Assembly: GCF_004010195.1 (NCBI RefSeq)
Contig: NC_057718.1
Location: 89,192,250 to 89,256,249, forward strand
DNA: 64,000 bases
Direction of reading: 5' to 3'
Source of the DNA: Chiloscyllium plagiosum
Lineage: Eukaryota
A program made the position numbers and the translations under genes. Positions 6,920 through 54,350 of the stretch are shown here, one piece after another. A model generated the notes under the pieces. That model had not been told where the DNA came from. It ran no database searches and saw nothing but the letters and a program-made list of their open reading frames with translations. Numbering within the stretch: position 1 is the stretch's first letter; each line of letters opens with the position of its first letter.

Positions 6920-7045
6920 TCCTGAAGAAGGGCTTATGCCCGAAACGTCGATTCCCCTGCTCCTTGGATGCTGCCTGACTTGCTGCGCTTTTCCAGCAAT
7001 CCATTTTTCAGCTCTGATCTCCAGCATCTGCAGTCCTCACTTTCT
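6920..7045 (+). mobile_element. Short Penelope-like terminal insertion starting at the hammerhead motif
   Basis: Same sequence as the 3' end of the GIY-YIG-coding copies; flanked by direct repeat cctactcagggt (6908-6919, 7046-7057). Confidence 0.8.
6922..6949 (+). ncRNA. Minimal hammerhead ribozyme motif with intact core, sense in ESR1 intron
   Basis: CUGAAGA-A-GGGC-UUAU-GCCC-GAAA-CGUC: both conserved boxes, 4-bp stem II, palindromic ACGU stem III, GUC triplet. Confidence 0.75.
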
Positions 7046-8269
7046 CCTACTCAGGGTAATGCAAAGTATCAAAGGTGAGGGAGAGGTTGGGAGAGGAGGC
7101 CTAAATCAAAATGGAGTTTGAGGGGGAGATCGAGGCATTGAGGGTACTGGTGCATCTTGCACGCTCCCTCTCCAAGGACACCCGGGCACAAACATAGCCG
7201 TGAAAGAGGGTGTCAGCAGCTAAGACCCCCCAAAGCCTTCCAAAGCCCATTGCCTGAATATGGTAATAGCCAACTTGGCCAGGCCCTGGAGCAGACCCAT
7301 GAGGAGGCCCTCCAATCTGCCCACACTCATCAGCACTGGATGCCCAAAGATCAGGAGCGTGGGACTGAGGTGCATCCAAGCACACGACCACAGATATTTC
7401 TAATAATGAGAAAAGAGGGAAGCAAAATGACATTAGGGAACCAGATGGGTTTTTAACAATAATTGTGAGCATTTATACAGCCATCATTAGATATTTAAAT
7501 CCAGTTTAATTTGTTATTGAATTCCCAGTTGCATCATCTACTGTGGTGGGATTTGAACCTGGGAACTTACCTGCTAGACTAACAGTTGAGTGTTAATACC
7601 ACTAAGCCATCACCTTTCCCCAGATCATAACTATTCTGTATCTTGGCTAATTGCCTATATTCTATAATTGTAACAACCTTGCCTAATTAATTTGGAGTTG
7701 ATAGATTTTGTTTTAATTTGACCTATCTTTCTAACCAACCTGTTCAGAGATGTTATTACACACCTCGGGAGCAGGTGAGACTTAAACTGGGCCTCCTGGT
7801 CCAGGGATAGGGACACTACCACTACACCACAAGAGGACCTCATGGAGTTGAAACACTGTTAAATTTGTAATTGACCTCACCTGAGCAGGTTTTTGGAGAA
7901 GACATTTCCTGATTTTTCACTATCTCCTGTGTGATGACTGCTGAAAATCCTAGCTCTAATTTTAAGGTTATGTCCCATGGGATACCAATCAGCACCCTCT
8001 TCCCACATATAAATTGTTGTTCTCTTTAAAATTTGGTATTCTTGCAATTCTGTCCTGATGAATGTGTAACAAAAAAGATTTGACATGTGCCTTTTTTCCG
8101 CAGTACTAGAGGGGTAGGTGTGAGTTAGGATGGAGAGCAAGGGGAATTAAACAGCAGAAAGATGACAATGGGAGGCCAAACAGGGTTCCTAACAAAATGG
8201 ACAAGAGAACAAAAGATGGCTCTGGAGTTGGTATAAATGTCTACAATAGGACACATGTTATAGTAAACT

Positions 8270-8757
8270 TGAAAGCATGCAGAAAAGATTTACATGGGTG
8301 TTGTAAAGGATGGGGTTGGAAGGTTTGAGCTACAGGGAGAGGCTGAATAGGCTGGGGCAGTTTTCCCTGGAGCGTCGGAGGCTGAGGGGTGACCTTACAG
8401 AGGTTTATAAAATCATGAGGGGCATGGAGAGGATAAATAGACAAGGGCTTTTCCCCAGGGTAAAGAAGTCCAAAGGTTTAAGGTGAGAGGGGGAAAATTT
8501 AAAACGGACTTAAGGGGCAATTTTTTTACACAGAAGGTGGTGCATGTATGGAAAGAGCTGCCAGAGGAAGTGGTGGACGCAAGTACAATTACAGAATTTA
8601 AAAGACACCTGGATAGGTATATGAATAGGAAGGGTTTGGAGGGATATGGGCCAAATGGTGGCAAATGGGACTAGAATTGATTTAGAATATCTGGTCAGCA
8701 TGGACAAGTTGGACCAAAGGATCTGTCCCCATGTTGTTCATCTTTTCGACTCTATGA
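8270..8757 (+). mobile_element. CR1/HER1 LINE 3' fragment
   Basis: RGGKFKTDLRGNFFTQKVVHVWKELPEEVV..FKRHLDRYM. Confidence 0.85.
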
Positions 8758-9869
8758 ACAGCAATGGGGAATCATGAGCTTGGAAAGCGACACAGATTAC
8801 TATGACCAGGTCTAAGTCAGAGAAGATGGATTGATCTGAAATGGTGTAGACCATTCCACGATCTGAGTCCCACTGAGAGATCCTGTCCCTCCCAAGTATC
8901 AGTGGGGTGGGATTTCAGAGTCATAGAGTCATACAACACAGCCAAGGCCCTTCGGCCCATCGAATCTGTGCCATCATATCCACAATAATCCCACTTTCCA
9001 GCACTTGGCCCAAAGCCTTGAATGTGAAATGCTCCTTCACAAACTTTTTAAACATTGTGAGGTTCCCTGCCAGTACTGCCCTCCCAGGCACTGTATTTCA
9101 GATTCCCACCACCTACTGGAGGAAAACAAAATCTCAAATCCCGTCTCATCCTTCTTTCCTTCACCTTAAGATTATACCCCCTCTTGTTGATTTTGCAGGG
9201 ATGGGGAACTGAAACTGCGTTGATTACTGAGAAGATGGTTGTGCCTCACCCTCAGTCCCACTCCTGTCACTTGAAAGGGTTCAGAAGCAGAAGAACATTC
9301 TCTGAATGTGTCTCAAATTTCGAAATACATTTACCTGATTTTTAACCCTTGGCCCACTCTAGGGGACACGAATGGAGGTTAATCAGCCTATTTTAAACCC
9401 TCCATCCTGAGTCACCATAACACTTCCCCTTCTGTTTTGTTGTATCCAGTTGGTTTTTAAAGATTGATTCCAAGATTGCCGTTTGCAGCAACATTTATTC
9501 CGCTTCACTGAAGTCTCATGTCAGACTTTGTACTAGTTTGAGTCAATAGCCTCTTGCTTTACCCAGACATTTTAATTTCAACTAGAGCAAGTAGGAGGTG
9601 GAAAAAGGTACAGATGGAAATGTCTATGCTGGACTGAAGAATGGAGAGATTGACATGATGAACCTGAGGGCAATGCAGGGGTGGGAATGGGAGAAGGGGC
9701 AACAGCTAGGTTGGGAGGAGGTGTGAATGTCAGAATGATAAACACCTAAATGGAAAAACAGAGCTGCAAAAGTGAAAACAAATAAAAGCAGAGATTTCAG
9801 TCAGAAATTACTGAATTCGGTGTTAAGTCCAGAGGCTGCAAAGAGCTTAATCGAAATGATCCTGTTATT

Positions 9870-10267
9870 GAGTCATACAGCACAGAAACAGACCCTTTGG
9901 ACCAACCAGTTTACACTGAACACAATCCCAAACTAAATTAGTCCCACCTGCTGCTCCTGGCCCATATCCCTCCAAACCTTTCCTATCCATCTACTGATCT
10001 AAATGTTGCAATTGGACCCATATCCACACTTCCTCAGGAAGTTCATTCTGCACATGAACCACCCTCTGTGTAAAATAATTTGCCCCCGTATTGGTTTTAA
10101 ATCTCTCTGTCCTCTCACCTTAAAACTATGCCCCCTAATCTTGAAATCCCCATACCGAGGGAAAAGACAACTACCGTTAACCTTGTCTCGACCTGACATG
10201 ATTTTATAAACCTCTCCAAGGTAACATCTCAACCTCCTACGCTCCAGTGAAAGAAATCGCAGCCTAT
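9870..10267 (-). mobile_element. CR1/HER1 LINE 3' fragment
   Basis: Minus-strand SLERRRLR..EVYKIM..D and 3' tail; a similar copy lies at 12265-12632. Confidence 0.8.
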
Positions 10268-10459
10268 TTTGTTTTGCTGAACAAAAATGGAAGTGGGAGG
10301 GTGTGTCTGGTGATGACATGCTGTTGAAGGTGGAGAAATGGGGGAGGATAATCTGTTGAGGAGGGTGGCAGGTAACACCAATGGGAGCTCTATCATGGCT
10401 CTGGGAGGAAGGGGAGACAGGGGTGCAGGGAGATGTAATAGGCATGATCGAGGCCCCTG

Positions 10460-11815
10460 GGAGAAAGGGAGGACTGCCGATGCTGGGGATCAGAGTCAAA
10501 AAGTGCGGTGCTGGAAAAGCATAGCAGGTCAGGCAGCATCCGAGGAGCAGGAGAGTCAATGTTTCGGGCATAAGCCCTTCATCAGGAAAGTGGGGGAGGG
10601 AAGGGGTCTGAGACATAAATAGGAAGGTTGGGGGCGGGGGTAACGTGATCGGTATTTGCAGGTGGGAGCTAATGGTGATAAGTCGAAAGGGAGGGTGGAG
10701 CATATAGGTGGGAAGTAAGATGGACAGGTAGGATAGTTCAAGAGGATGGTGCCGAGTTGGAATGTTGGATCTGGGATAAGGTGGGGGGAGGGGAGATGAG
10801 GAAACTGGTGAAGTCAACATTGATGCTGTGTGGTTGGAGAGTCCCGAGGTGGAAGCTGACTATGATCTATGGGTGACTCTGATTTGGCAGTGGAGGAGGC
10901 CAAGGAATTACATTTTCTTGGTGGAGTGTGAGGTGTAGTGAAGTGGTCAGACACTAGTTGGGTGCGTATGTCCTAGAGATGTTTCCTGAAATATTCCGCA
11001 AGCTGGCGTCCTGTCTCCCCAATGTAGATGAGAGCACATCGAGAGCAATGAACACAGGAGATGAGGTGATTTGGATGTGTAGGGAAATCTCTGCTGGTGG
11101 CAGGGTGGCTCAGCGGTTAGCACTGCTGCCTCATAGCGCCAGGGACCAGGGTTTGATTTCAACCTTGGACCATTGTCTGTGTGGAGTTTGCACATTCTCC
11201 CCGTGTCTGCATGGGTTTCCTTCCACAATCCGAAGATTTGCAGGTTAGGTGAATTGGCCATGCTAAATTGCCCGATGTGCAGGGTAGGTGCACTAGTCAG
11301 GGATAATTATAGGGTAGTGGAATGGGTCTGGGTGGGTTACTCTTTGGAGGGTCGGTGTAGACTTGTTGGGCCGAAGGGCCTGTTTCCACACTGTAGGGAT
11401 TCTATGTGGAAGGATACTTTGGGGCCTTTGAATGGAGGTGAAGGGGCAGATGTGGGCACAGGTTTTACACCTCTTGCAACGGCAAGGGAAGGTGCCGGGA
11501 GTGGAGGTTGCGTTGGTGGGGAGCATGGACCTAATGTGGGAGTCACGGAGGGAAAGGTCTCTGCGGAACGCTGTTAGGGGTGGGGAGGGAAATATATCTC
11601 TGGTGGTGGGGTCTGACTGTAGGTGGCAGAAATGACAGAGGGTGATGTGTTGTGTCTGGAGATTAGTGGGGTGGAAGGTGAGGACAGGAGGGTTCTGTCC
11701 TTGTTGTAGTTGGAGGAGTGGGATGCAAGGGTGGGGGTGTGGGAAGTGGAGGAGATGTGATGGAGGGTATTGTTGACCATGGGGGAGGGGAACATGCGGT
11801 CCTTGAATTGGCCCT
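10460..11815 (-). mobile_element. 5'-truncated Penelope-like element, interrupted by a SINE and nested in an older Penelope-like copy
   Basis: Encodes fragments PPLTAFRRDLSLRD...PGTFPCRCKRCKTCAHI and a decayed GIY-YIG region; hammerhead-type end at about 10558-10586. Confidence 0.8.
11096..11406 (+). mobile_element. HE1-like tRNA-derived SINE
   Basis: A box tggctcagcgg, B-box-like ggtttgatttc, V-type central domain, gggccgaagggcctgtttccacactg tail. Confidence 0.88.
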
Positions 11816-13106: not shown

Positions 13107-15210
13107 GTCAGTGGTTGAAATGGCACGCAGTATTAACAGAGGTCCCAGCAGAAAACTACCTACGATCACTTGCAAATGAAGCACATCACTGCAGCAAAAT
13201 TTATATAGCTTCAGCCTCATCCAAAAGCAACTACTCTGCAACAAAACAAGCCCTGTATTTTGTGTACTTACTGATTCGGAAAGGGCTTGCTAGTGACGCG
13301 GGAACAGCATAGTGTTCCAGCAGTTTTGTAAAGTTGTCTAAACTTTTCGAAGAATTTACTGCAACTCCAAGTGCTTGACTAGAACATGACCATGAGGACC
13401 AACATTAAAGGATGGATAATCCTTGGCTTTCCAAAAACCACTTGGCGACAGAATGAGTTAGACCACAGAGCATTCACCTCTGAGCTACCTGAGGTCCAAT
13501 CTGCTGGTGATGGTTTGGATGGAGAACCAGGATGCAAGGGGGCGGAGGTGAACGGAGTTAATGCACTTATCCTCGTACACATCTGGATCCCGTCGGCAGC
13601 TGTGCGGGGGAATCGAGGAGAAAATAACCCACTCTGGTGCCAATCTTCTGAGCTGGGGCCATACTGCTGGCTCAGAGTAAAGGGAGCTTTACCCTTCCGT
13701 GGAATTCTCTTCACTCCCTCATCTTCAGTTTAAAAAAAAACAAATCTCACAAACATATTCTCCTTCAACATGGCATGTGAATTTCCCCATGACTCAACTG
13801 ACCTTGTGGTCATTCAGTTCCTCTGCCAGTACTGGCGGCCATCTTGGTCCTATTGCTTATTCCATCATCTTTGTTCATTAATTTGGGTTTATGTTATGCT
13901 TGTTAATAATTTGAATAGATTGATTTGTTTTGCATAATTAGGAGTTTGTAATGTGTTCTGGACTAAATGCAGCCAATATTCGACATGCCTCCAGCTAAGT
14001 CACAAAATAACTGCTGCATTAAAATCTTGGAACTCCCCCTCCTCTCTGCTCTGAACAGCCACCTTTGGGAGCACCATCACCACATGGACTGCAGCAATTC
14101 AACAAGGTCCACCATCACCTTCTCCATAACAACAAGAGATGGCCAATAAAGGCCAACCTTGCTTGTTTGCCCAGAATACAATTTTAAAGTTTCTGGGTGT
14201 GGAGAGATGACTAAAGCACCGTGATCATGATACCAACCAGACCTCGATAGCCCATGGCCGCATTCCCTCAAAGGTTTTTGACACTCAATGGGAAGAATTG
14301 GAATCGGAACCCTGGGCAGGAATAGGAGGTTCACTTCAGATCAGCGTCCTGTCAAGTTTTAACACATCAGCCCAATATTGCATTACCAATATCGACACTG
14401 GCTACTACCTCATGCACTGGTGGTTTGTAGGGAATTCTTTTGCAACACTACTGTTTACTCTGTATCATTGTTGCATTAATTGTAAGATGCTTATTCTCTA
14501 CTATGGGTCAACCAACAGCCTTAGATGCAATGTTTCCTCATTTGGTGCCTTTTTTTGTACGCTTGTGTCAGACGCTTATTGTTTAGGTGTCATAGTGCTG
14601 TTGAGGTGGTGTGTTGCCGTTTTACGTTTTGAATTGGAGTTGCTGAAACCCAAAGATTTTACGAATTATTTCTGGGGCAGGATTTGGGCATGCAATGATG
14701 ATACATCAATGATGCATTTTGTATGTTGAATCCCCTGGGTCCACCCTTAGTGCTAATGGAGGGCATGTTGGGAGCAATCATGAAATCACCCAAATAGGAA
14801 CCTTCCTGCTCAACCATTCCTGACTTCAGTTAGAATCACCAGCTCACTCCCCACACCCTTACTCAGTTCTTTATGCTCCGCAGAACTGAATTCATTAGAT
14901 CCCAGCTTCCACCAGTCAATGGACGAGATGAATTTTCTCTCCTGGGTAAAGTTATAACAGAAAACTTATCCTGACTGTTGAAAATTATGAAGAAGGCATC
15001 AGGCATCACATGGTGAAGATAATTGATAGAACAGTCAGGGGGAGAATAGGTGGAGGGTAGCGAAGTGGGAGTGTACTGACAGAGATCTTTTTTTATATGG
15101 CAAGCTGTTAAAATTGTGAGTGGAGAAGGTAGATTCAATAGTAACTTGCACTTGTGCTGAATGGCCTCATGCTGTACTGTATGATTGCATATCATCCTTC
15201 ATATCATCCT

Positions 15211-15310
15211 CTATTCCTGATGAAGGGCTTTTGCCCAAAACGTCGATTTTCCTGCTCCTTGGATGCTGCCTGACCTGCTGTCTTTTTCCAGCACCAGTCT
15301 AATCTAAACT
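15211..15310 (+). mobile_element. Short Penelope-like terminal insertion
   Basis: ctgatgaagggcttttgcccaaaacgtc at 15217-15244 (GAAA changed to AAAA); flanked by tatcatcct repeats. Confidence 0.75.
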
Positions 15311-15462
15311 CTATCATCCTTCCTGTTTTCTGGATATATATGTTGTCAATTTCAGAGCAAAAACATAGTTCTTTCTTTAGTGTGTCTGATAGGTCCATGG
15401 ATTAGCCTCGTCCTTTCTCGAGTACACAGTGAGTTTGTAAGCAGCAGACAATTTCTCAAGCA

Positions 15463-15681: not shown

Positions 15682-16775
15682 TGTAAGTGAGGAGAGGTAT
15701 GGGGTGGTGGGTTAAGATTTGCTCTTGGTGTTTTTCAATGACCTGTCTTTCTGAAAACTACTTTGAGTGAGAGTCAGACAAGCAGCCCTCATGTTTGTAG
15801 CTTTCTGATGCAAAGAGTAGAGCTATTTAGATTAATCTTTATTTCCACAAAGCTGTACTGAACATAGAACACAGAACATAGAAAAGTACGGCACAGAACA
15901 GGCCCTTTGACCCACGATATTGTGCCGAGGGTTAATCCTAATGTAAAATAAAATAACTTAACCTACGCACCCCTCAACTCACTGCTATCCATCTGCATGT
16001 CCAGCAGTCACTTAAATGTCCCCAATGACTCTGCTTCCACCACCACCGCTGGCAACACATTCCATGCATTCACAACTCTCTGCGAAAAGAATCTTCCTCT
16101 CTATACCTTTCTCCTAATATCTTAACTACTGCTTCTGAAAGGGTGAGTATCAGACATGGGCGGAGAGAGATGCAGGTCTTGAAATTAAAAAAACAGGCTA
16201 TGGGACATTAAAGCGGCAATACAGGAATCCTTGAGAGTCAAAACCTTTTACAAGCAGGATATGTGTGAATTCTTCCACAAGACATTCAGTATTTATGGGT
16301 GTTTTTATTGTTAGACAATGACAAATTGACATTATATCAGAAAAACACTTTGGGATAAATGTCAGATTACATTCTAATAGACAATGAGGCTTCACCAAGA
16401 ATTGGGGATAGCATTTCGAATAAATTTATTGTAATCCCGTATTTTGTATTGCTAAATTATATTCCTCTTACTCACCAAAGTACAACCATTTGGCCACGAC
16501 TTAGTTCTGGGGCATCCAATAAAGCTGCAAATAATTCTGATGATTTTATGGTTATTAAATTTGTTTATACTGCTTTTGTTGTCACAAACTGGGCAACAAT
16601 GGGATTTTACAGAAGGAGCCTCCTCATTCCGTCCTGCCCCTGTGGCCATTTTGCATCTCTCCACACTGTCCTAAATCAATACCAAATGAAGCAGATTGCC
16701 CTGCTCTCTTTATGCAGCACTGTTAATCCCAAACTAATCTCACTCACCCCCTTTCTCTCTGCAGTCCATTTTCAA

Positions 16776-17722
16776 GGACAGAACCCCTCCTGGTGCTCAG
16801 CTTCCATCCTACCAATCTTCGCATAAACGAAATCATCCGCCGACATTTCCGCCACCTCCAAAAAGACCCCACCACCAGGGATATATTTTCTTCTCCACCC
16901 CTTTCCGCCTTCCACAAAGACCGTTCCCTCCTTGACTACCTGGTCAGGTCCACGCCCCCCCAATAACCCACCCTCCCACCCTGGCACCTTCCCCTGCCAC
17001 CACAGGAATTGCAAAACCTGCTCCCACACCGCCTCCCTCATCACCATCTAAAGGAGCCTTCCACATCCATCAAACTTTTACCGGCACATCCACCAATATC
17101 ATTTATTGTATCCGTTGCTCCCGATGTGGTCTCCTCTACATTGGGGAGATTGGACACCTCCTAGCAGAGCGCTTTAGGGAACATCTCTGGGACACCCGCA
17201 CCAATCAACCACACCGCCCTGTGGCCCAATATTTCAACTCTCCCTTCCACTCAGCCGAGGACATGCAGGTCGTGGGCCTACTTCACCACCGCTCCCTCAC
17301 CACCCAATGCCTAGAGGAAGAACGCCTCATCTTCCGCCTCGGAACACTTCAACCTCAGGGCATCAATGTGGACTTCACCAGTTTCCTCATTTCCCCTTCC
17401 CTTCCCCCACCTCACCCCAGTTCCAAAATTCCAGCTCAGCACTGACCCATGACCTGTCCTACCGGCCTATCTTCCTTTCCACCTATCTACTCCACCCTCC
17501 TCTCTGACCTATCACCTTCATCCCCACCCCCACTCACCTATTACCCTCCTCTCATTTATCTCTCCACTCTTCGGGCACTCTGCCTCTATATTCCTGATGA
17601 AGGGCTTTTGCCCAAAACGTCGATTTGCCTGCTCCTCGGATGCTGCCTGAACTGCTGTGCTTTTCCAGCACCACTCTAATCCAGAATCTGGTTTCCAGCA
17701 TCTGCAATCATTGTTTTTACCG
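16776..17722 (+). mobile_element. 5'-truncated Penelope-like retroelement with GIY-YIG endonuclease remnant
   Basis: Encodes PGTFPCHHRNCKTC, NIIYCIRCSRCGLLYIGE..AERFREH..VAQYFNS..EERLIFRLGTLQPQGINVDF; hammerhead motif 17594-17621; flanking direct repeat agtcYattttcaa (16763-16775, 17723-17735). Confidence 0.9.
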
Positions 17723-19340
17723 AGTCTATTTTCAACCCCAAACTAATCCAACTGTTCCATTCTGTTCAAAGTGCTTTATCAACCCTGAGTGGTTTCTACT
17801 GTCCTGATTTCGCAACATGAATTGCGTGCATTAAGAGCCTTTGTATTCTCTGACCTTCGTTTGACTTGACACTTCTTAACCCTGTTTTCGAATCCCTTTC
17901 TAGCCTGAACCCCCTCTATCTCTGTGTTGTCCTCCAACCACACAACCCTCTGAAATATTTATATCAAAGGCCTAATTATGGCCTTTGTGCATTCCTAGCT
18001 AGAATCACTCCACCATTGGAAGTCATGCCTTCAGTCACCTAGGCCCTCAGCTCCCGAATTCCCTCCCTGCACCACTGTACCTCACTTTCCTTCATTAAAT
18101 CCTTCCTAAACTCTCTTGTGATCAAGTTTTAGGGCATGTAGCTTAACGTCTCTCAATCTGGCTTGGTGATGTACTTGTTTCCTAAAACTCCTATGAAGTA
18201 CCTTGAAGTGTTTCATCATGGTAAATATTAGTCATTGTTTTGGGTCCATCTATTTTCCATTGGGCAGTGCACAGTCCTGGCTGGATGAACTTGGAAGAGC
18301 CCTCTTTGGTATTGGTTGGGCTGAGCAGAAACAATGACTCGCGTACTTCTAAATGTTGGGCCCACATTTGCCATAAGTACAGTAAAGAAGGGTACTCTTT
18401 ACTTACCATCACATTGGCTGCAGTATTTGGGAGCTGCAGCTGTTTACACATCAGTACCATTTCTTTTATCCATGTCAAAATCCCACAGTCAATCAATCCA
18501 TTCTGGCTAACACTCACACTCGGATTTATTTACTACAAGTGGAACTATACAGAGAACCTGTAAGACACAGTAAGTCACTAATAGGGTGATACTAGGTTAA
18601 CACAATGCATAAGGGATTGCAAATTAAGTAGTCTGAAATGTTTTTGATGGTATTCTATGCCCAAATTGTAAATTGAAGATGACCTTGCATTTGTTCGTCC
18701 CTTAGATATTTTTACTCAACTTGTTCAGATGTGTTATAACAGACTGCTGAAGAAAGGGGGCAGTGGCTTCAACCTAGGTCTTCTGGCCCAGAGGTCGGGA
18801 CATTACCACTTTGCCACAAGACCCCTCCTGTTAATTCCTTGGATATTTTCTCACCATACTGGTCAGAGCTTTGATGATGAACCTCTGGAGTAGATGGGAC
18901 TTGAACTCGGGCCTTTTGTCCTGGAGGGAGGGATACCATCACTGTGTGACAAGACACACTACCATTAGTTCCTTGAGGTGGTTGATCTGATGTGAAGTAG
19001 CTGGGGACCTGAGAGACTCTTTCATTTGATGACTGAACAATTTATCCCTGATATCAGGCAGTTAAGACAGTAACCACTTTCAATATCCATCACACAAGGA
19101 AGACTTACAGTCTCCAGCTGCCTAATGATTTACCTAATGAACAACAATGACTTCTTTTGGTTGGTTTATATTGGAGTTAACCTATTAAATACCCACCACC
19201 ATTGATTAACGTCTGTTGAAAGACTTAATTGGGGTTCACATCGCCATCCTGGCTGTGCTGAGCTTCCTTTAAGATCTTTGGCTGAAGACAGCCTTGAAAA
19301 CACAGTTGCCTTGACTATCTTAAATACCCATAAAACAAAT

Positions 19341-25414: not shown

Positions 25415-27469
25415 CTGTATTTATAATAACATACAAATTAGAAAAAAAAAAATTACAGCTGAGACAAACGTCCCCTTTGGAACAAACCCTCTTGCGAGAT
25501 TCCCAGTCTCACATTTGAAGTCGGAACCTAGCCTGCTGCACAGGCTGCTGGGGAAATACAACTACATCCAGATTTCAATCTATTTTTCTATGCAGTCCTC
25601 CATGCATCATTCTTTCACAGGCCTCCTCAGTATGGAGGGTCAAGGACCCATTTGAAAAGTTTAACCCTTGCTCCCCACTGAGCTTAAGCTGCTAATATAT
25701 ATTTTAGTTTATAGTTGTCAACAAAATTGCATTCCTTAAACACAACGCTTTCCAAATTACAATGACCATTGAATACCAGCAGCATAAAGCCAGGGCTGCC
25801 AACACTCCTGGACTGTCTGATAATCTTCAGGAATTGAGGATTCATCTCCAGGAGACTGCTGTGATAGAGCCCAACGTAACAAACCCGGGTGCTCAATATT
25901 TTGTTCTCCTGTTTTCTTTGAATGTTTGAGGCGTTCTAGTAGTGTTGTAAATGAGGGGCAAGACTAAAGTCAAGATTAATCCAGTCAATGGACAGTAAGA
26001 AGGCTGTGCCCTTAAGAGGACGGGCAAATTGTGGTGTGGGATGGTTCAGGTTAGAAGGTCACGTGATGAAACCTTCAGGGCTACACACCGGCCGAGTGGT
26101 CAACCCTATTGATGGACACACAACAGGCCTTCTAGACGGACAGGATGGTGTAGGTTTGGGAGGGGTGCACTTTGGACATGAGGGAAAAAAGGGGAAATGT
26201 GGCTTGGATAGGATGCCCCTGGTTAGCAGCTTGTGGGATCGCTGTGATGGACTGACTATGCTTTCCCTGCTATTAGTTTGATATGTACAATTGGAGGAAC
26301 AGTGCCAACTAAGAGATACCAGCAGATGTAGAGAGAACGTCCCCCACAATTATACAGCAATTCACAATAGTCTCCAAGAAGACAACTAAAGGCGCCTGTT
26401 TAAGACAGAAAAGAAAAACTTCACAGTCAGGTACAGTGCCTGACAGTTTGCATCAATGCTCTGGTGAATGCTATAATGTTAGCAATATTATAGAGTTCTT
26501 CCCTCCTAGTATGTGTCAGACTCAAAATGAGAGTGCAGTTACTCTATCTCACCTCAAACAGCACAGAAGGGGGCCATTCAGCCCAGACTGCCTCTGCCAG
26601 CTGTCTGCAGTTTGAGAAACTTTGAACTTTGGTCTATGACTTGGCGTGGATGCTTTTGATTGAAATTCAGGAACATCTTTCACATTAATTCCTGAATTCA
26701 AATTAACACAATTACGTAGATGCCCGCAGTAGGCTGGCGCAAAGCAAGTCTCTCAATCGTTCACCATGGGGAATCCATATTTATCGAGGTAAAAAGGAAT
26801 GGATTCAGTGAGGGAAACAGAGATGCAGATTATTGATTAAATGGAGAGGGGTTGGGAAGTGTTGATTTGCATAGGGTGGCCTTGTTAATGAGTCACTTCA
26901 AGTTACCATACAACAATTAAGACCGCAAATGGTTTGTTAACCCTTATTGCTGGGGGACTCAAATACAGAAGTAAATGCAGTTAATGGAAGCCCTGGTTAG
27001 ACCAGACCTGGAGTACTGTGTGCTGTCTTAGCTCCCTACCCAAGGGAGGATAAACCTGCATAAAGGAAAGGTTCAGGATAGGTGGGACTGTACTCCGAAG
27101 AGAGACTGAGCCAAGATTCCCCAGTGAAACACACAGAATTCTTACAGGGTTCCACAACGTAGATATAGAAAGGGTATCTACCCCTGGCTGGAGGTGCCGT
27201 GCCTACAGCAAGGTGCATCTTTTCACTTAAAGGGAGATGAATCTTTGAATCTTCTACCATAGAGAGGTGTAGAAGGTCAATTATTAAATATGTACAGACC
27301 AGGGATCAGTGGATTTCAAGATATTAAAGACATCAAAGGGACCTGGGTACAGTGTGGGGAAATGGTGTTGAGGTGGAAGATCAGCCATGATGCAGATTAT
27401 ATGGGTCAAATGACTACTCCCAATGGTTCGGAGTATAAATACTGTAGTGTAGGACTGCAGTTTTGTGTG

Positions 27470-27597
27470 GGAGAAAGTGAGGACTGCAGATGCTGGAGAT
27501 CAGAGTCAAAGAGTGTGGTGCTGGAAAAACACAGCCAGTCAGGCAGCATCCGAGGAGCAGGGGAATCGACATTTCGGGCATAAGCCCTTCATCAGCG
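27470..27597 (-). mobile_element. Short Penelope-like terminal insertion
   Basis: Minus strand ctgatgaagggcttatgcccgaaatgtc; flanking direct repeat gttttgtgtg (27460-27469, 27598-27607). Confidence 0.8.
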
Positions 27598-33963: not shown

Positions 33964-34298
33964 AAGTGCAGACAACTGAGACCAGGCACTGACTGAAGGA
34001 GAAAGCAAGGGCTGTGGACGCTGGAGATCAGAGTCAAAGAGTGTGGTGCTGGAAAAGCACAGCAGGTCAGGCAGCATCCGAGGAGCAGGAGAGTCGACGT
34101 TTTGAGCATAAGCTCTACATCAGGAAACCCCCACATTCCTGATGAAGTGCTCATGCCAGAAACGTCGACTCTCCTGCTCCTCGGATGCTGCCTGACCTGC
34201 TGTGCTTTTCCAGCGCCACACTCTTTGACTCTGATCTCCAGCGCCCACAGCCCTTGCTTTCTCCTTCAGTCAGTGCCTGGTCTCAGTTGTCTGCACTT
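33964..34298. mobile_element. Fold-back Penelope-like terminal insertion (two 163-bp inverted arms)
   Basis: Arms 33964-34126 and 34136-34298 are near-perfect reverse complements with a 9-nt spacer. Confidence 0.88.
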
Positions 34299-39840: not shown

Positions 39841-39927
39841 GAGTAATGTATACTGAGTAATGTATACTGAGTAATGTATTCTGAGTAATGTATACTGAGT
39901 AATGTATTCTGAGTAATGTATACTGAG
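39841..39927. repeat. Minisatellite (GAGTAATGTATWCT) x6
   Basis: Six 14-bp units read directly. Confidence 0.95.
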
Positions 39928-40465: not shown

Positions 40466-41778
40466 CTCACCCTAAACCTATGCCCTCTAGTTCTGGACTC
40501 CCCCACCGTAGAGATAAGACCTTGTCTATTTATCCTATCCATGCCCCTCATGATTTTATAAATCTCTATAAAGCCTCCGATGCTCCAGGGAAAACAGCTC
40601 CAGCCTATTCAACATATCGCTCAAATCCTCCAACCCTGGCAACATCCTTTTAACTCTTTTCTGAAACCCTATCAAGTTTCACAACATCCTTCCGATAGGA
40701 AGCAGACCAGAATTGCACACAGTATTCCAAACGTGGCCTAACCAATGTCTTGTACAGCCACAACGGGACCTCCCAACTCCTGTACTCAACACTCTGACCA
40801 ATAAAGGAAAGCATACCAAACGCCTTCTTCACTATCCTATCTACCTGCGACTCCACTTTCAAGGAGCTACGAATCTGTACTCCAAGGTCTCTTTGTACAG
40901 CTCTGAGATGCAGAGAGCTCTGAATATCCTTGTGCATGAATTGCACATGGTTAGTATGTAGGTACAGCAAATAATCAAGAAAACTAATAGAATGATACTG
41001 TTTGTAACAAGGACAATCGAATATAAATGTAGGGAGGTTATGTTTCAGTGATACAGGGCTATGTTGAGATCACATCTGGAGTACAGAACACAGTATTTAA
41101 GAATGGATGTCAATATGTTGGAAAGCGTTCAGCAAAGGTTTACTGTACTAACACATGGAATAGGTGGGTTGTTTCAATGGGTTGTCTGCATTTGTTGACG
41201 TTTACAATAGTCAGAGGTGACTTGTTATCGAAACACAGAAGATCCTGAGGGATCTTGACAGGAGGATTTTTCTTGCAGGAAAATTTGAACAAGTGCTCAC
41301 TGTTGAAAAAGAAACGGTCACCGCCCCGCCCTTTTAAGATGGCAGGGTGACCGTTATAAGGGGAAAATATTTCTCACAGCGGGTCATGAGTCTTTGAAGC
41401 TTGTTCTCAAAAGGCAGTGGAAGCAGAGTTGGAAATTTTTTAAGGAAGGGGTAGCTGGATTCTTGATAATCAGATTAGCCTTAATCTTACTGAATGATAG
41501 AACAGACTCGATGGGTTGAGTGGCCTGCTACTGCTGCTGATTCCTGTGTTGGAATGACAGCTTGCAGCACTGATCTCAATGTTATGGGGCAATAATTGAC
41601 CATAAAGAAAACACTCATGACCTTCTGACTCAGCAGTTCATCATGGGAAATCATGAGAACAAAGTTTGTGAACACTGAACATTATGCATTGCTGCATTTT
41701 ATAATAGAGAGCAGCTCAATTTACTTTTAAAGTCAAGGCTATGTGCAGAGAGCTGTGGGTCCATAACCATGCTTTTAT

Positions 41779-42085
41779 GGGTGGCACAGCTGCCTCACAG
41801 CGCCAGGGACCCAGGTTCGATTCCAGCCTCAGGCGACTGTCTGTGTGGAGTTTGCACGTTCTCCCCGTGTCTGTGTGGGTTTCCTCCGGGTGCTCCAGTT
41901 CCCTCCCACAGTCCAAAGATGTGCAGGTTAGGTGAACTGGCCATGCTAAATTGCCCGCAGTGTTCAGGGATGTGTAGGTTAGGGGTAAATGTAGAGGAAT
42001 GGATTTGGATGGGATGCTCTTCAGAGGGTTGGTGTGGACTTATTGGGCCGAATGGCCTGTTTCCACACTGTAGGGAATCTATTCT
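41779..42085 (+). mobile_element. HE1-like tRNA-derived SINE
   Basis: B box ggttcgattcc, central domain and tail. Confidence 0.88.
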
Positions 42086-42730
42086 ATTAATAGGCACAGA
42101 GAGAGAGAGATGGAGTTAAAATTTCTCTGTGGATGAGCTTGGTTAGGAGAGCACTAGAGCATCACAGATGTACAGTACAGAAACAGACCCTTCAGTCCAA
42201 CTTGTCCATGCTGACCAGATATCCTAACCTAATTTAGTCCCTTTTGCCAGCATTTGGCCCATATCCCTCTAAACCCCTCCTACTCATATTCCCAACCAGA
42301 TGCAATACCTCAGATTTAAAGTTGAACTCAGAATATAAATCAGCGAAGTGCAGATCAGATACAAGCTATTAAACAATGGCGACACCCCACATATATAGCA
42401 CCCACATCCATACAGCTTTAGAGTAAAGTGATGTGTTTGAAGTCCGAATACTGTGTGCTGTGCTGCACACCACTGTGCTACATCCAATCGGAGCTCAATA
42501 TGATCACACAATGTAAAAGCGATCAAGCATAGTCTTTTTTATCAGTGTTCGTCAGGAGGTAAAGGCGGAGAAAGTTGAGTCAAAACGTGTGGCGCTGGAA
42601 AAGCGCAGCCAGTCAGGCAGCATCCGAGGAGCAGGAGAGTCGATGTTTCAAACATAAGCCCTTTCATCAGGAATGTGGAGGGGGGGCCGGGGTGTAGCCA
42701 CAAGGGGCCCAATAGATAAATGGGAGGGGG

Positions 42731-42812
42731 NNNNNNNNNNNNNNNNNNNNNNNNNNNNNNNNNNNNNNNNNNNNNNNNNNNNNNNNNNNNNNNNNNNNNN
42801 NNNNNNNNNNNN
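42731..42812. other. Assembly gap (82 N)
   Basis: Run of n characters. Confidence 1.
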
Positions 42813-43207
42813 TAGGGAAGGGGGAGGGTGGAACGGAGAGGTGGGAAGGAAGATGGACAGGTAGGACAGTTCAAGAGGGTGCATTGGAGGGTTGGATCTG
42901 GATAATTGATTCTGTGTGGTTGGAGGTGGAAGATGAAGTGTTCTTTCTCCAGGTGTCGGGTGGCTAGAATTTGGCAGTGGAGGCAGCCCAGGGCTTGCAT
43001 GTCCTTGGCAGAGCGGGAAGGGGTGTTGAAATCTTCGGCCACAGGGCAGTGGGATTGTTGTCCTGGAGATGTTCTCTGAAACATTCCACAAGTTGGCGTC
43101 CTGTCTCCCCAGTGCAGAGGAGATCACATCGAGAGCAACGGACACAGTAGACGAGGTGTGTGGATGTGCAGGAAACCCTCTGTCGGATTTGGAAGGATCC
43201 TTTGGGG

Positions 43208-43285
43208 GGAGGTGTGGGCGGAGGTGTGGGCGGAGGTGTGGGTGCAGGTGTGGGTGGAGGTGTGGGGGGAGGTGAGGGTGGAGGT
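43208..43285. repeat. G-rich 12-bp minisatellite (GGAGGTGTGGGN) x6.5
   Basis: Read directly; lies inside the Penelope-like element. Confidence 0.9.
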
Positions 43286-44349
43286 TTTCCACCTCTTGTG
43301 GTGGCAAGGGAAGGTGCCAGGAGTGGAGGGAGGGTTGGTGGGAGGGGGGACGTGGACCTAATGAGGAAGTTGAGGAGTGAATGATCTCCGCGGAATGCTG
43401 AACAGGGCGGGGAGGGAAATATATCTCTGGTGGTGGGGTCTGACTGTAGATGGCAGGAGGGTGATGCGATCTATCTGGAGATTGGTGGGGTGGAAGGTGA
43501 GGACCAGGAGAGTTCTGGCCTTGTTGTGATTGGAGGGGTGGGGTTCCAGGGCAGATATACAGAATGTGTCAACTCGCAGTGAGGAAATTCACCTGCTCTT
43601 CTTTAAAAGGAATGCCATGAGGACTTTCCATGTCTGTCACAAAAGGTCAGATGGTGTCTTAATGTCTCCTCTGAAAGATGGCAGCTTTGATAGTGCACCA
43701 CTCCCTCACTGGAATGTCAGCCTTGGTAACCTGTTTATGTCCTTCACTATTGTACTTAATGTCTAAATAGATGCTTAATGATCAGCAGTGGCATCTGGTT
43801 TTCACTACAATTAAGTTACCAACTAGTACCAATTGTTCAATAGTAACACACCCAAATTACTTCACAAGTTCAAATTAAATGGTAGGAGGTCAAAGTGATA
43901 AAGTTGATGGATTTTACTGCCGTGGATGCAGCATTTATAGTTGCTGGCAGGAAGTAACAGGGAGACATTGAAAAGCAGCCAGCTTATTGACTGTGGGAGT
44001 AAACGTGACTCACCTCATAACTCTAAACAAAATCCTGATTTACAACATCAGCACCTGCTCGATTGTGAACACAGTGAGGTGAATGTTAAACCAGCTCACA
44101 GGAACTGCGTGTCCATCTCATCCACTCCTCCCCTCCCTCCATCCCCCCTTTACATCCTCCTTCTCATCCTTTCAATCCCTCTCCCAAACACTCAGTCCTC
44201 CCCTATTCATCACACTCAACCTACCCTTCACCACCTCCCTTCCTTATAACTCTTCCAACCAGCCCTGACGCGTCTCCTCCATCATTCTAACAGCTCTCTC
44301 TCCCCCACTGACCTCCCACTCCTCTCAAACCACAGCCTCCCTTGGAACA

Positions 44350-46419: not shown

Positions 46420-46458
46420 ATTATAGCATGTCAACATTTATAGTAGAATGCAATTATG

Positions 46459-46881: not shown

Positions 46882-47329
46882 TAGAATGCAATTATGTCAC
46901 ATTGTAGTTACATCCTCCCACCACAGGTGGTGCTGGAATGTTTCAGATTTGTGATCTGCAGCTGCCAAGCCAAGCCCTCTGTCTAAATGTTTGGTCAACC
47001 CACCAATAATTCTTTTCTTGGTTGAACATTCGTTTTATCAATTATCTCTTTTTGAAATACCCTGTGCCTAACTTTCATTGAAACTGCAATAATAAATCCA
47101 ATTTACCACTGCTGAAAATGGAAATAACCATGTTCGTGCATTATTTGGCCGATTTATCCCCCGCCCCAGTGGTAAGGGAGGGGTAAGCACCTTGGCTTTG
47201 CCTCTCCAAAACATCAAATCTTCCGACTGCTGTCCACTGAACTCCTCTGAAGGGAAATTGCTGAGAAAAACCTTGCAACAAAATTAGCTGGAACACTTAA
47301 TTACTGAATCCTGGCTGTATTTTGCAGTA

Positions 47330-47486
47330 GAAAGTGAGGGCTGCAGATGCTGGAGATCAGAGCTGAAAATGTGTTGCTGGAAAAGCGCAGCAGGTCAGGC
47401 AATTCCAAGGAACAGGAGAATCGACGTTTCGGGCATAAGCCCTTCTTCAGGAAATGTGTTGCTTTTCCAGCAACACATTTTCAGCT
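47330..47486 (-). mobile_element. Short Penelope-like insertion with a short inverted segment
   Basis: Flanking direct repeat ctgtattttgcagta (47315-47329, 47487-47501); 47461-47486 is an inverted copy of about 47360-47387. Confidence 0.82.
47423..47450 (-). ncRNA. Minimal hammerhead ribozyme motif with intact core, sense in SYNE1 intron
   Basis: Reverse complement reads CUGAAGAAGGGCUUAUGCCCGAAACGUC, identical to 6922-6949. Confidence 0.75.
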
Positions 47487-47626
47487 CTGTATTTTGCAGT
47501 AATCAGGTGATGTGTCGTCTGTACTGTTGTGAAAATCTAGTTCATAATTTAAGCATTTTAGAGCAGAAGTTTGATTTTCAGGGCTTGAAGTTCTAACTGA
47601 GGTAAGCGGAAGCACTTGAGAAACTG

Positions 47627-47750
47627 GGAGAAATCGAGGACTGCAGATGCTGGAGAGTCAGAGTCGAAGAGTGTGATGCTGAAAAAGCACAGCAGGTCAG
47701 GCAGCATCCGAGGAGCAGGAGAATCGACGTTTTGGGCATAAGCCCTTCAT
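47627..47750 (-). mobile_element. Short Penelope-like terminal insertion
   Basis: Same terminal sequence; truncated inside the CUGAUGA box. Confidence 0.75.
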
Positions 47751-49715: not shown

Positions 49716-51109
49716 TCCTTCCAATAACTGCCACTGTTTAAACTTCTATTCTTTCATAGGGACATGAGCATCACTGACTGTGTGTTGCCTCTCCCTAGTA
49801 GACCTCAGGGTGCTGATAGCAAGGTGCTTTCTTGAATCACTACAGCAGGGGTAGCTACAGTACTGTTCAGAAAGGGGTTTTCACCCAGTGTATAAACAGT
49901 GAAGTAATTCTAGGTAGGGTGCTGTGCAGCTTGGAGAGGAACCTAGAGATGATGGTCTTCCAATGCATTTGCCCTTCTCAGTGGCAGGTCATGATTTTGG
50001 AAGGTGCAGTCAAAAGGGACCTTTGGTGAGTTGCTCCTGTGCATCTTGTAGATGGTAGACAATGCTGCCAGCCTGCATCAGTGGTGGAGATGGACAATAG
50101 ATACAACAATGTGACAGTCATTGTATTTACCTCCGGGATTATCAGTCAGAGGGGGCCATGGAAGCTGTGAAACTTACTGAGTGCCTCAGCCCCTGGTATT
50201 TTAATGCGAGGACAGAGTCTACACCCCACTAGTCAGTTCCTACATCAAACAGAACTGGAACAGCAAATGGAGAGGGATTTCAAGGGAGCACTGAGCCAGA
50301 CACTTGGTCAAGCCCAGTTGTACTCTGATGAGTTGACAATAATGCAAAACATGCATATGTCAAAACACCCTTAAAGACCACATCCCTGTCCCATCCCTTT
50401 CGAATATACATTCCCTCTGTCAAATTCTGGCCGTGTTGAAGGCCCACCCTCTCCAGGGGCTGTTGCGTGCAGCTATGTGACCGTTGCAGTTCTCACTCCC
50501 TCATTCCTGCCGTGATCACACAGGGAATTCCCAAAGGACCCGAGAGCTGAAAATAGCCTCTTTTCGGAAACCAGCCTGAAACTTCCTGTTGACATCTGCG
50601 GAGTGTTCCCGTCATATTCCCGTCATTTAAACAGGGAAATACTATTGCTCAAGTAATGCTGCTGTACAAACACACTGAGGACAGACATTCAGCCCATCGG
50701 CTCAGCCCCATCACCTCTTTGTTTGGGGCCACTTTCAGGCAATCGAACAATTCGGGAATGCCTGCTCTGGTATAAACAATATTCAAACAGAAACAGTAAG
50801 TGGCTCAGTTCCAAGAGACTGCTGACAGGTCATGGTGAAGCAGAGTAATAGAGGATCCAGTGTAGCATTAATGCTGTCAAAGAATGGGTGGGCCTAATGA
50901 CCTGTTGGTGTGCTGTGGGCTCTATATATTGTTACACCTCATAGTTGATTAAGAAGAGACTAGACAAGAATGTAATGTGTCTTGATTTTGCAAAGCTCAC
51001 TAACTACCCAGTTGTAAATCAGAAATGTTCTGAACTTTTCTTTAAGGTCTGTCACATTGATCAGCAAGCATCCTAGTATTCATGTGAGACACTGATAGCA
51101 CTGTATTGT

Positions 51110-51225
51110 TTTGCCCGAAACGTTGATTTTCCTGCTCCTCGGATACTGCCTGACCTGCTGTGCTTTTCCAGCACCACTCTAATCTTGACTCTGATCTCCA
51201 GCATCTGCAGTACTCAGTTTCACCT
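51110..51225 (+). mobile_element. Short Penelope-like terminal fragment
   Basis: Starts in stem II (ttttgcccgaaacgttg) and continues with the conserved ctgcctgacctgctgtgcttttccagc end. Confidence 0.7.
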
Positions 51226-52251
51226 AATCTCAGTAAGCACGCTTCATTGGTTCATCTACAACAGACCCAGAGAGGAAACCCTTTTGTAGTGGAAACCTTT
51301 GGGCCTGGAACCAGAACTCAAAAGTTTCTCCTCAGCACCAAACATTTACCCCGCTTTATCTGGAGAGATCGGAAGAGTTGCTGCTCAAATGGCGTCTCCA
51401 GCCTGCTCTGCCATTTTATTCAATCATTGCCAACCTCCTGCCTCATCCTCAACCGCTCATCACCCTATCCCCATCTCCCTCGATTCCCTGAGAGACTCGA
51501 ATCCTGTGCATCCTAACCCTAAATATCTTCAGTCATGGAGCATCCACAAGTCTCTGAAGCAGGGAATTCCAACAAATCATAATCCCTTGATTGAAGTCAT
51601 TTCTCCCACTTCCAACGTAAATGACCAGCCTCAAATCCAGACAATGTGCCACCCCCTCCCCCCACCCCCACCCACAGCCCCATATTTTAGATTCCAGCGC
51701 AAACAGAATCTCGGTATCCATTCTGCCCAGCCCCTTCAGAAACATGCACGCCTCAATCCAATCGCCTCTTATCCTTCCAAACTCCACAGTGTAGGCCCAA
51801 TGCGCACAATCACCCATCAATAAGTACCCCCTTCATTCCAGGATTTACCAGGACGTTTCAGAAATTCAAAATTATTCTCCACAACACCGTCACCATGGAG
51901 AAAAATCCAGAGTGATGCTAAAATAAATCTAGATTTTGTTTTGTGATTTTCTTTGACATAAAAATAGTGAAATTGGGGGAAATGAAAGACTGTTTGATGG
52001 ATAGTCAAACATCATTGGTATTCCTGTCCTCCAGCTGGTGCAGGAAGGCAGCACGTCATGAGAACGGCCATGTTGGCCAACTATTGGCTGCAACATGGGG
52101 ACAAGTCATGTGATAAAGACTCCAGGAATGGATTTAACAACAGCTTTACTCAGGGACCAATCGAGCGAATCTTGGCCGAACTGTCTCCAAATCAAGTATA
52201 TATTCTTCGTTACAATTTGCACATTGTATTTCAGGTATTGCCTCAACAAAG

Positions 52252-52557
52252 GGTGGCATGGTGGCTCAGTGGTTAGCACTGCTGCCTCACAGCACCAGGG
52301 TCCCAGGTTCGATTCCAGCCTTGGGCGACTGTCTGTGCGGAGTTTACACATTCTCCCTGTGTCTCTGCGGATTTGCTCCGGTTTCCTCCCACAAGTCCAA
52401 AGACATGCAGGTCAGGTGAATTGGTCACGCTAAATTGCCCATAGTGTTAGGTGCATTAGTCAGAGGGAAATAGGTCTGGGCGAGTTACTCTTCGGAGGGT
52501 CGGTGTGGACTGGTTGGGCCGAAGGGCCTGTTTCCACACTGTAGGGAATCTAATCTA
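52252..52557 (+). mobile_element. HE1-like tRNA-derived SINE
   Basis: Intact A and B boxes; aatctaatct tail. Confidence 0.9.
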
Positions 52558-52629
52558 GAATTGCGGCAAGGTTATTGTTTCTGCACCGACTCAAATCAGA
52601 GATATACTGTAATGTTGGACAGACATCAC

Positions 52630-53042: not shown

Positions 53043-53085
53043 ACAATTGAATCCATTTTAATTTATGAGATTAGCGTTCACTCAC

Positions 53086-53212
53086 CTGAAGTCTGTGACT
53101 CTGTGCTCGTCAGGTTAATTAAGCCGGAGAGCTTGTCTTCCTCCTCTTTGAGTTTATGCCCCACCCTTTTCACAGTTTCAATGCTACCACGGCATTCCGA
53201 CAGCAGCTTCAT
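53086..53212 (-). CDS. SYNE1: Nesprin-1 coding exon (127 nt)
   Basis: cctcag|ATG AAG..TCA G|gtgagt; MKLLSECRGSIETVKRVGHKLKEEEDKLSGLINLTSTESQTS. Confidence 0.95.
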
Positions 53213-53772
53213 CTGAGGAACGGAACAGAACAGCGGGATGGGGGGAGGTTGAGAAGGCGCAGGACTTGGGGGCAGGAGCACAGACACAGCACCTCCTGCT
53301 GGTGGAGGTGATGGCCAACCAATTAATTTGCACAGAGAACAAACCAACGCCCACAGAACCAGAGCATGTGGACTGGACCCAGTTTAGCACCAGGTTACCC
53401 AGTGAAACCATCGTTTTGGAAATGTTGCAGATTTCCGATATTCCCCCCCTCCTTCCACTTTGCATAATGGGGCAGGGGGACAGGAGGAGACCAGTCAGTC
53501 CCTCAAACCTGTCGTTTATACCCACATCCACAACTACCAGAATGGAACAGAAATTAGCAAAATGAGCTGCTTTCGAATTTTAGAGAATCGAAGGGAATTA
53601 CTCAAAACCCACAAATTCATGAAATCAAAAGGGAATTCAAAGTTTTTGTTCTGAAAATGCCAATACCATTAAAAATGACCACCATGTTGGCTGCCATTAA
53701 AAACTGAAATGATTCACTCATGTCTTTCGGGGAACAGAACGCACCATCTTTACCCAGTTCAATGTGACTCCA

Positions 53773-53886
53773 TTGGAGACTCCCAGCCTTATTCCTGATG
53801 AAGGGCTTTTGCCTGAAACGTTGATTCTTTGCTCCTGGGATGCTGCCTGACCTACTGTGCTTTTCCAGCACCACTCTAATCTAGAC
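53773..53886 (+). mobile_element. Short Penelope-like terminal insertion
   Basis: Hammerhead motif 53795-53822; flanking direct repeat tcaatgtgactcca (53759-53772, 53887-53900). Confidence 0.82.
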
Positions 53887-53932
53887 TCAATGTGACTCCA
53901 GTTCTCTTAATGAGAGTTTGGCTCTAAAGAGG

Positions 53933-54350
53933 TTGGAGGAAGAGCTCCTCATCTTCCGCCTAGGAACCCTCCAACCACAAGGGATGAACTCAGATTTCTC
54001 CAGTTTCCTCATTTCCCCTCCCCCCACCTTGTCTCAGTCCCAACCCTAGAACTCAGCACCACCTTCCTAACCTGCAATCTTCTTCCTGACCTCTCCGCCC
54101 CCATCCCCACTCCGGCCTATCACCCTCACCTTAATCTCCTTCCACCTATCGCATTTCCAACGCCCCTCCCCCAAGTCCCTCCTCCCTATCTTTTATCTTA
54201 GCCTGCTTGGCACACTTTCCTCATTCCTGAAGAAGAGCTCATGCCTGAAACGTCGATTCCCCTGCTCCTTGGATGCTGCCTGACCTGCTGCGCTTTTCCA
54301 GCAACACATTTTCAGCTCTGATCTCCAGCATCTGCAGTCCTCACTTTCTC
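53933..54350 (+). mobile_element. 5'-truncated Penelope-like element (endonuclease C-terminus and terminal repeat)
   Basis: Encodes LEEELLIFRLGTLQPQGMNSDF; hammerhead motif 54227-54254; flanking direct repeat ctctaaagagg (53922-53932, 54351-54361). Confidence 0.85.

Follow-up and report, generated by a model that had tools for sequence, protein, structure and literature searches.

The 64,000-nucleotide stretch analysed here (the window) comes from the shark Chiloscyllium plagiosum (NCBI RefSeq assembly GCF_004010195.1, contig NC_057718.1, positions 89,192,250 to 89,256,249 of the forward strand). It carries repeated copies of a short motif resembling a hammerhead ribozyme, which an earlier note, made from the letters alone, had attributed to the ends of a family of Penelope-like elements. 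In what follows, the C of CUGA is position 0 and the predicted cut follows +27. The motif is present at every position listed in that note, its first C lying at 6922+, 10585-, 15217+, 17594+, 27595-, 34123-, 34139+, ~42669-, 47450-, 53795+ and 54227+ (the minus-strand numbers given there are the low ends of the copies), and the two truncated copies it had named are real as well (Table 1). A search of the window allowing up to five substitutions gave 11 matches, as against none in each of 20 Markov-simulated sequences. With nhmmer, 15 hits were obtained: 13 family copies, that is, the 11 matches plus the indel-bearing copy at ~42669 and the stub at 51109, and a divergent pair at 62806-62971.

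From each motif a shared unit of 95-135 nt continues. The copies had been thought to be paired element ends, but they are mostly free-standing stubs of 100-135 nt, several of which (6922, 15217, 27595, 47450 and 53795) lie between target-site duplications of 10-15 nt. Endonuclease remnants stand upstream of the motif in four copies (10585, 17594, 42669 and 54227); the frame at 16936-17445 is a GIY-YIG piece, with a Pfam GIY-YIG E value of 0.014, below the cut-off.

Table 1. Copies of the motif-bearing unit in the window (UTR, untranslated region; RT, reverse transcriptase; N, undetermined letter)
Positions	Strand	Feature	Details
6919..7048	+	solo stub, subfamily A1	motif exact (6922-6949), cut predicted after 6949, tail of the long class
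6908-6918 and 7046-7057		target-site duplication of the 6919..7048 stub	11-12 nt
10458..11731	-	5'-truncated decayed element	RT-thumb/endonuclease remnant and 3' UTR; palindrome of motif 10585 broken; long tail
15209..15312	+	solo stub	tail of the short class; A in place of G12; 11 nt duplication
16773..17727	+	5'-truncated element	zinc-finger linker, GIY-YIG frame, 3' UTR, motif 17594 (G12 to A), long tail
27468..27595	-	solo stub	begins at CUGA, palindrome AUGU, 10 nt duplication
33964..34298	.	head-to-head pair	two damaged motifs (34123- and 34139+); each arm long
42577..43551	-	5'-truncated decayed element	endonuclease remnant, damaged motif ~42669, short tail class, 82 N inside
47326..47489	-	stub	exact motif 47450-47423, 30 nt inverted arm 47460-47489, 15 nt duplication enclosing all
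47624..47750	-	stub	begins at motif +3, G12 to A
51109..51230	+	stub	begins at +12, within stem II
53790..53888	+	solo stub	short tail class, core kept, G-U pair, GUU triplet, 14 nt duplication
53936..54353	+	5'-truncated A1 element	final endonuclease codons, 3' UTR, motif 54227 with broken stem II, long tail
62806..62971	.	head-to-head pair	older divergent relative of the unit; source of a spurious Rfam mir-3202 hairpin hit

Variation between the copies had been said to fall only at positions that a hammerhead tolerates. This was wrong, as G12, stem II and the palindrome are hit too. An exact core with stem II and ACGUC is found only at 6922 and 47450 (2 of the 13 window copies), while the copy at 53795 keeps the core. 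The catalytic G12 has become A in four copies (15217, 17594, 34123 and 47753), and in others either stem II or the palindrome is disrupted. Most other damage likewise lies at CpG positions, and among 117 gap-free copies from the genome sample six CpG positions deviate in 16-29 copies each, compared with 1-9 for most other core positions. The damage pattern of the window copies thus fits CpG decay, and most of them are predicted to be inactive as hammerheads. Stem I, put at about 2 bp previously, is slightly longer: C-G and U-A pairs are followed by a U.U mismatch and an A-U pair. A still longer stem I at 6922 was rejected, because the extra pairing belongs to the host target duplication outside the element.

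The genome-wide motif search that the earlier note had called for returned 48,069 exact matches to a 30-letter motif pattern in 3.56 Gb, and none to the reversed control. Six blocks picked regardless of content (576 kb in all) held 106 copies, which extrapolates to about 650,000 copies genome-wide if these blocks are representative; blocks picked near known hits were denser (163 copies in 588 kb). The core, stem II and the palindrome were all intact in 48 of 134 sampled copies covering the motif. This copy number is far above the counts given in PMC4209133 for Penelope-like elements with minimal hammerheads.

The element that carries the motif appears to be a Neptune-type Penelope-like retrotransposon, an assignment supported by its coding sequence and resting on the zinc-finger linker and the domain order. 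A tblastn search with the endonuclease part gave 138,539 first-look candidates in the genome. In longer copies one frame holds RT motifs, a CX4CxxC linker and GIY-YIG, and its stop precedes the motif by about 200 nt, so the order reads RT, zinc finger, GIY-YIG, 3' UTR, motif and tail. In loci L034 and L036 a single frame runs from RT motifs (GMGPSYA, YIDD) into GIY-YIG, the latter at E values of 2e-4 to 7e-4, below the Pfam cut-off; an RVT_1 hit in L034 belongs to an adjacent piece of a long interspersed element (LINE) and is not the RT of this element. The linker CHRRNCKTC of L023-L026 fits the CX2-5CxxC definition of the Neptune clade (PMC8557442), and the top Atlas clusters at 0.97 carry RVT_1, HTH_animal and GIY-YIG. 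In the partial tandem L046, an endonuclease piece, a 3' UTR and a motif are followed by the open reading frame (ORF), a 3' UTR and another motif. The two motifs stand about 3.56 kb apart around the frameshifted ORF, in the manner of pseudo-long terminal repeats (pLTRs). The long loci and this tandem together support the earlier proposal of a Penelope-like element with a GIY-YIG ORF and the motif in its pLTR. No intact full-length copy was present among 36 long loci, most of which are interrupted by assembly gaps; long open frames from the genome search were set aside because they mostly are such gaps. An in-frame ATG common to subfamilies A3 and A4 lies at about +165, behind the tail sites. 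A candidate start codon at +46, 18 nt behind the cut site, was discarded, being in frame in A3 only and not in A4. A sequence search of the PDB gave no hit.

The motif itself conforms to the minimal type I hammerhead pattern of Penelope-like elements, a reading supported by its CUGANGA, GAAA and UH core, the extra base after A9, the G10.1-C11.1 pair and the palindromic helix III. In 922 kb, 77 sites satisfied a descriptor that demands the core, four base pairs in stem II and a palindrome in helix III; the reversed control had none. They form three families: A, which includes the window copies (stem II GGGC/GCCC, helix III ACGU, stem I UC/GA); B (stem II GGAG/CUCC, helix III AGCU, stem I CAC/GUG, CUA triplet; 3,374 exact matches in the genome); and C (stem II of 6-7 pairs, helix III ACGU, stem I CCA/UGG; 2,680 exact matches). 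The covariation analysis proposed earlier found compensatory changes in helices I-III across these families: read by eye, the core stays constant while stems I, II and III change in compensatory fashion. Because families B and C keep the core under such changes, the comparison supports the notion that selection acts on the hammerhead fold, with catalytic activity being a prediction. Within family A, A9 and U18 co-occur in 7 of 148 copies, with 7 and 8 copies showing one alone (Fisher p 6e-5). The expectation that the core is more conserved than its flanks was borne out across families, where both stems and flanks change. Within family A, whose subfamilies diverge upstream of -5 and are alike from the core through +90, it held for the upstream flank only, the downstream flank being about as conserved as the core.

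Families B (loci L117-L122) and C (L123-L128) are further hammerhead-bearing repeats, the latter lying behind divergent RT/endonuclease remnants. Same-strand RT/endonuclease hits were obtained in 3 of 6 family C loci, and for family B the link to a Penelope ORF consists of two tblastn hits in 6 loci, both weak and inverted. With 4 copies in the sample, family C was unsuited to end mapping. Old copies with a longer stem II, similar to the pair at 62806-62971, are also present in the genome sample.

Minimal hammerheads with an extra nucleotide and a palindromic helix III were described in Penelope-like elements by Cervera and De la Pena in 2014 (PMC4209133). As such hammerheads are already published, the shark family adds a member to a known class: the extra A and the palindrome are present as had been noted, and they are hallmarks of that class, hence not new. 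The metazoan pLTR hammerheads share with the shark motif the CUGANGA core, the extra nucleotide between 9 and 10.1, the G10.1-C11.1 pair, the loopless palindromic 15.2-16.2 stem, the position in the pLTR and the occurrence mostly as single dispersed copies with some opposite-strand pairs. They differ in helix II (7-8 bp in the schistosome families, 4 bp in shark family A) and in copy number (4,000 in coelacanth and 9,000 in Xenopus, far below the shark family); the available sections of PMC4209133 map no 5' ends of copies and name no sharks, and shark terms are absent from two of its supplement files. Our literature search, with Repbase and Dfam, which may list the family, outside its scope, found no description of this shark family or of the fixed 5' edge and cap signature described below. 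What the motif as such adds to this class, on record since 2014, is a further lineage and a very high number of copies. The role of the hammerhead in Penelope-like elements is stated to be open (PMC8557442, PMC11167929), and the mapping of copy ends is the only part of our analysis that bears on an open question.

Ends were mapped in 1.16 Mb (the window plus fetched blocks), in which 315 anchor hits yielded 273 family A copies, 269 of them unique and 242 of these with a readable, gap-free 5' junction. The 5' ends were called by alignment to references; a first map was replaced, as shared inverted arms had distorted it. The 3' ends are bimodal: 124 of the 269 copies end at +75 to +105 (about +90), 137 at +106 to +135 (about +127), and 8 elsewhere. 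These correspond to the tail already published for Penelope-like elements (PMC8557442, PMC3846280). A 30-40 nt tail and an inverted 5' copy are optional features of endonuclease-containing (EN+) Penelope-like elements (PMC8557442), and both are found here; head-to-head pairs combine one long and one short arm in 24 of 29 cases (first 664 kb). The pair at 33964..34298 is unlike these, and because both of its arms are long and about 35 nt of flank is inverted too (95%), it is probably a later fold-back duplication or an assembly effect.

At the other end, 29 of the 242 copies reach -190 or beyond, 18 begin at -189 to -17, 14 at -16 to -9, 73 at -8 to -1, 57 at 0 to 11, 22 at 12 to 25, 4 at 26 to 30 and 25 at 31 to 60. 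Junction patterns of subfamily A1 counted genome-wide (3,827 at -4, 3,164 at -3 and 233 at -7) confirmed that the 5' edge is hard and lies at the A that precedes CUGA by four bases. This A is the last base of stem I, pairing with U+31, and it stands in an initiator-like YYANWYY context, which, read by eye, is present in the family A subfamilies. A splice acceptor at this edge was excluded, since no AG precedes A-4, and a Drosophila-type downstream promoter element at +28 to +33 from the A was rejected as offset and mismatched. The base before A-4 is G in 67 of the 100 matches listed, compared with 17 of 100 for the control junction at -3 (a count by eye); at non-inverted A1 junctions G precedes A in 9 of 16 cases where 27% is expected (p 0.016), and of 20 G loci inspected, at least 4 have a G that is clearly untemplated.

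The predicted cut site is spanned by 212 of the 242 copies, and at most about 2% begin there (the 4 at +26 to +30), so that the templates were uncut, or re-ligated, at this point. Genome-wide, 577 junctions fall at +28 and 586 at a +30 control, both with many indel artefacts. Among 25 inspected +28 matches, 14 were true junctions and 8 were deletions ending at +28, and after rough by-eye removal of artefacts the +28/+30 ratio is about 1.7, within reach of microhomology. Mapping of four read runs at 88% likeness gave both-strand reads in one poly(A) single-cell run with no pile-up of read begins or ends and no mapped reads in another run, and was uninformative for start or cut sites.

Since the 5' edge is fixed, the 3' ends fall at two tail sites and few copies start at the cut site, most copies look like short complementary DNAs (cDNAs) of an uncut RNA front end. 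The explanation that we favour jointly for these features, and consider probable on the present sequences, is that the window copies are mostly short, decayed insertions of the Neptune-type element copied from the uncut front end of its RNA. The element RNA would begin at A-4, and the element protein would prime reverse transcription internally at the tail sites, at about +90 or +127; in vitro, internal priming at two tail sites has been demonstrated with an Anolis element (PMC11167929). Where the 5' copy of these sites is primed, the product would be a cDNA of 95-135 nt that is inserted as a stub, either singly with 10-16 nt target duplications or as a long-plus-short head-to-head pair, whereas long insertions would arise only when priming occurs on a downstream tandem copy. 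Cutting after GUC by the hammerhead would require that two copies pair through ACGU, in a tandem or between two RNAs. Cleavage, perhaps slow or protein-assisted, would take off a leader of 32 nt or divide tandem transcripts, and insertion would not depend on it. That the hammerhead forms the first 36 nt of a capped element RNA, the stubs, hundreds of thousands in number, being strong-stop cDNAs primed at the 5' tail-site copy, is a more specific proposal that we put forward tentatively and regard as possible, though less likely than not. If true, start site, priming sites (both) and the rarity of cleavage would be recorded in the genome to the single base; the need of Penelope-like elements for tandems in full-length copying would be explained; and the ribozyme would act as a switch that depends on dimers, senses concentration and takes the cap off the mRNA of its own element. 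The junction statistics give a testable placement: the RNA would start at the motif, uncut RNA would give rise to the insertions, and the cut would lie between start and priming sites.

Several observations weigh against this picture. By energy the monomer does not fold as a hammerhead (z 0.28 and -0.34), the modelled dimer (-16 to -19 kcal/mol) lies above the co-fold minimum (-23.5), and Rfam covariance models found no hammerhead family among 7 hits at E up to 1; Rfam hammerhead models expect a full helix III and a longer helix I. (The Rfam microRNA hits, which all score below the gathering threshold, come from hairpins that inverted pairs form, and were rejected.) A microhomology null for the inverted arm, taken over non-C bases before A, already predicts 59% G, against which 67 of 100 is not significant (p 0.07), and in subfamilies A3/A4 G is found at only 3 of 14 non-inverted junctions. 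As many junctions are inverted, microhomology alone predicts 59% and A3/A4 have no excess, the cap signature (G before A-4) is modest, mixed and suggestive only. Among 30 ORF-continuous copies, 6 extend 33-198 nt upstream of the motif, 5 start at -8 to +9, 2 start exactly at +28 and 10 abut gaps; the first of these groups implies that templates including the 3' UTR also exist. Furthermore, alignment-based 5' ends can shift toward the motif in old subfamilies whose upstream part is outside the reference panel, as for window copy 42669, called at -22 despite its endonuclease remnant.

The same edge might instead be produced in the same element by 5'-to-3' trimming up to a folded or protein-bound hammerhead, or by RT fall-off, so that copies start at stem I. 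We think this somewhat unlikely, as an RNA trimmed in this way leaves the G before A in A1 singles, the untemplated G at some loci and the initiator-like context to be accounted for. It does fit the coincidence of the edge with the last stem I pair, the lack of G excess in A3/A4 and the long templates carrying a 3' UTR. It gains as well from family B, in which 7 of 64 5' ends lie at -3, the first base of that family's own stem I, and 23 of 64 in -14 to 0, although this peak may reflect a subfamily with different upstream sequence.

Two other accounts concern cleavage itself. According to the model of PMC4209133, cleavage is routine in transposition, tandem transcripts being cut into units or circles that serve as main templates. 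The conserved, covarying fold agrees with this, as do the short tandems on one strand, at distances of 180-694 nt, in 20 of 30 loci (chosen because motif and ORF are continuous), the true junctions and the deletions ending at +28, and a locus whose units start there. However, the copies spanning the cut site greatly outnumber those starting at it (re-ligated circles would escape this test), the counts at +28 and at the +30 control are alike, the cleaned ratio of about 1.7 is one that microhomology could give, and tandem junctions vary from unit to unit (L203), unlike rolling-circle products, so that we judge routine cleavage unlikely. Still less do we expect that cutting has been lost and the motif kept for another role, such as a promoter element or a protein-binding hairpin. 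It is true that stems I and II are very short, that minimal hammerheads show weak cleavage in vitro (PMC4209133) and that 8 of 9 frog dimers stayed uncut (bioRxiv 10.64898/2026.07.22.740005). On the other hand, three families whose flanks are unrelated retain every catalytic position, the NUH triplet and a palindrome in helix III, the motif has held on to three CpG pairs despite their fast decay in copies, and the Anolis motif cuts in the presence of protein (PMC11167929).

Among the closest known systems is PAc, the Poseidon element of Anolis carolinensis (Frangieh et al. 2024, PMC11167929), which also has two 3' ends about 35 nt apart downstream of the hammerhead and uncut RNA as its main template, with no reads at the cut site. 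Unlike the shark element, whose ATG follows CUGA by about 165 nt, PAc has an ORF starting at stem II; the Neptune-type zinc-finger linker belongs to the shark element, and no fixed 5' edge is described for PAc in the sections available. With the Neptune clade of EN+ elements (Craig et al. 2021, PMC8557442) the shark family shares the C-terminal GIY-YIG and CX2-5CxxC linker (its CX4CxxC being close to the Neptune1_Nv row), partial tandems, inverted 5' copies and a tail at one end only; it differs in that short solo stubs make up most copies. Non-LTR retrozymes (bioRxiv 10.64898/2026.07.22.740005) are likewise short hammerhead-bearing units derived from pLTRs, reported in one chondrichthyan (mean 363 bp) along with hammerhead tandems, and short tandems of 180-694 nt occur in this shark genome. 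The window copies, in contrast, are dispersed monomers or head-to-head pairs with no tandem array among them, and the shark tandems have unit-specific junctions, many abutting assembly gaps.

Tandems with internal deletions, carrying two or three motifs on one strand at distances of 196-624 nt, were seen at L195, L197, L199, L203, L204, L216 and L193. Both L195 motifs, 280 nt apart, are exact; recurrent spacings are 300, 281 and 180, often next to an assembly gap. Such tandems are possible natural substrates for dimer assays and possible retrozyme precursors. At L205, two tandem units both begin exactly at +28. Another recurrent event (L221, L224, L225, L226, L229 and L241) is the loss of the whole core, with about +1 to +5 joined to +28 through GA microhomology; these deletions could reflect RT jumping across the fold or from a cut end.

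As to the surroundings, the window overlies, on the minus strand, the 3' portion of a nesprin gene, with exons in 38061-60414 (Pfam SYNE1 E 2e-33), and a nuclear-receptor ligand-binding exon on the plus strand (6126-6476) faces it; presumably this is the ESR-SYNE neighbourhood of vertebrates. Nothing ties the motif copies to either gene. An abundant dispersed repeat of about 300 nt, resembling a short interspersed element, lies at 11107-11404, 35373-35566, 41771-42081, 52234-52552, 58246-58569, 60801-61112 and 63506-63827, and many CR1/L2-type LINE fragments are present in the window. A degenerate (CA)-rich tandem repeat at 59450-60060 adjoins a nesprin exon and is the source of weak mir-297 hits.

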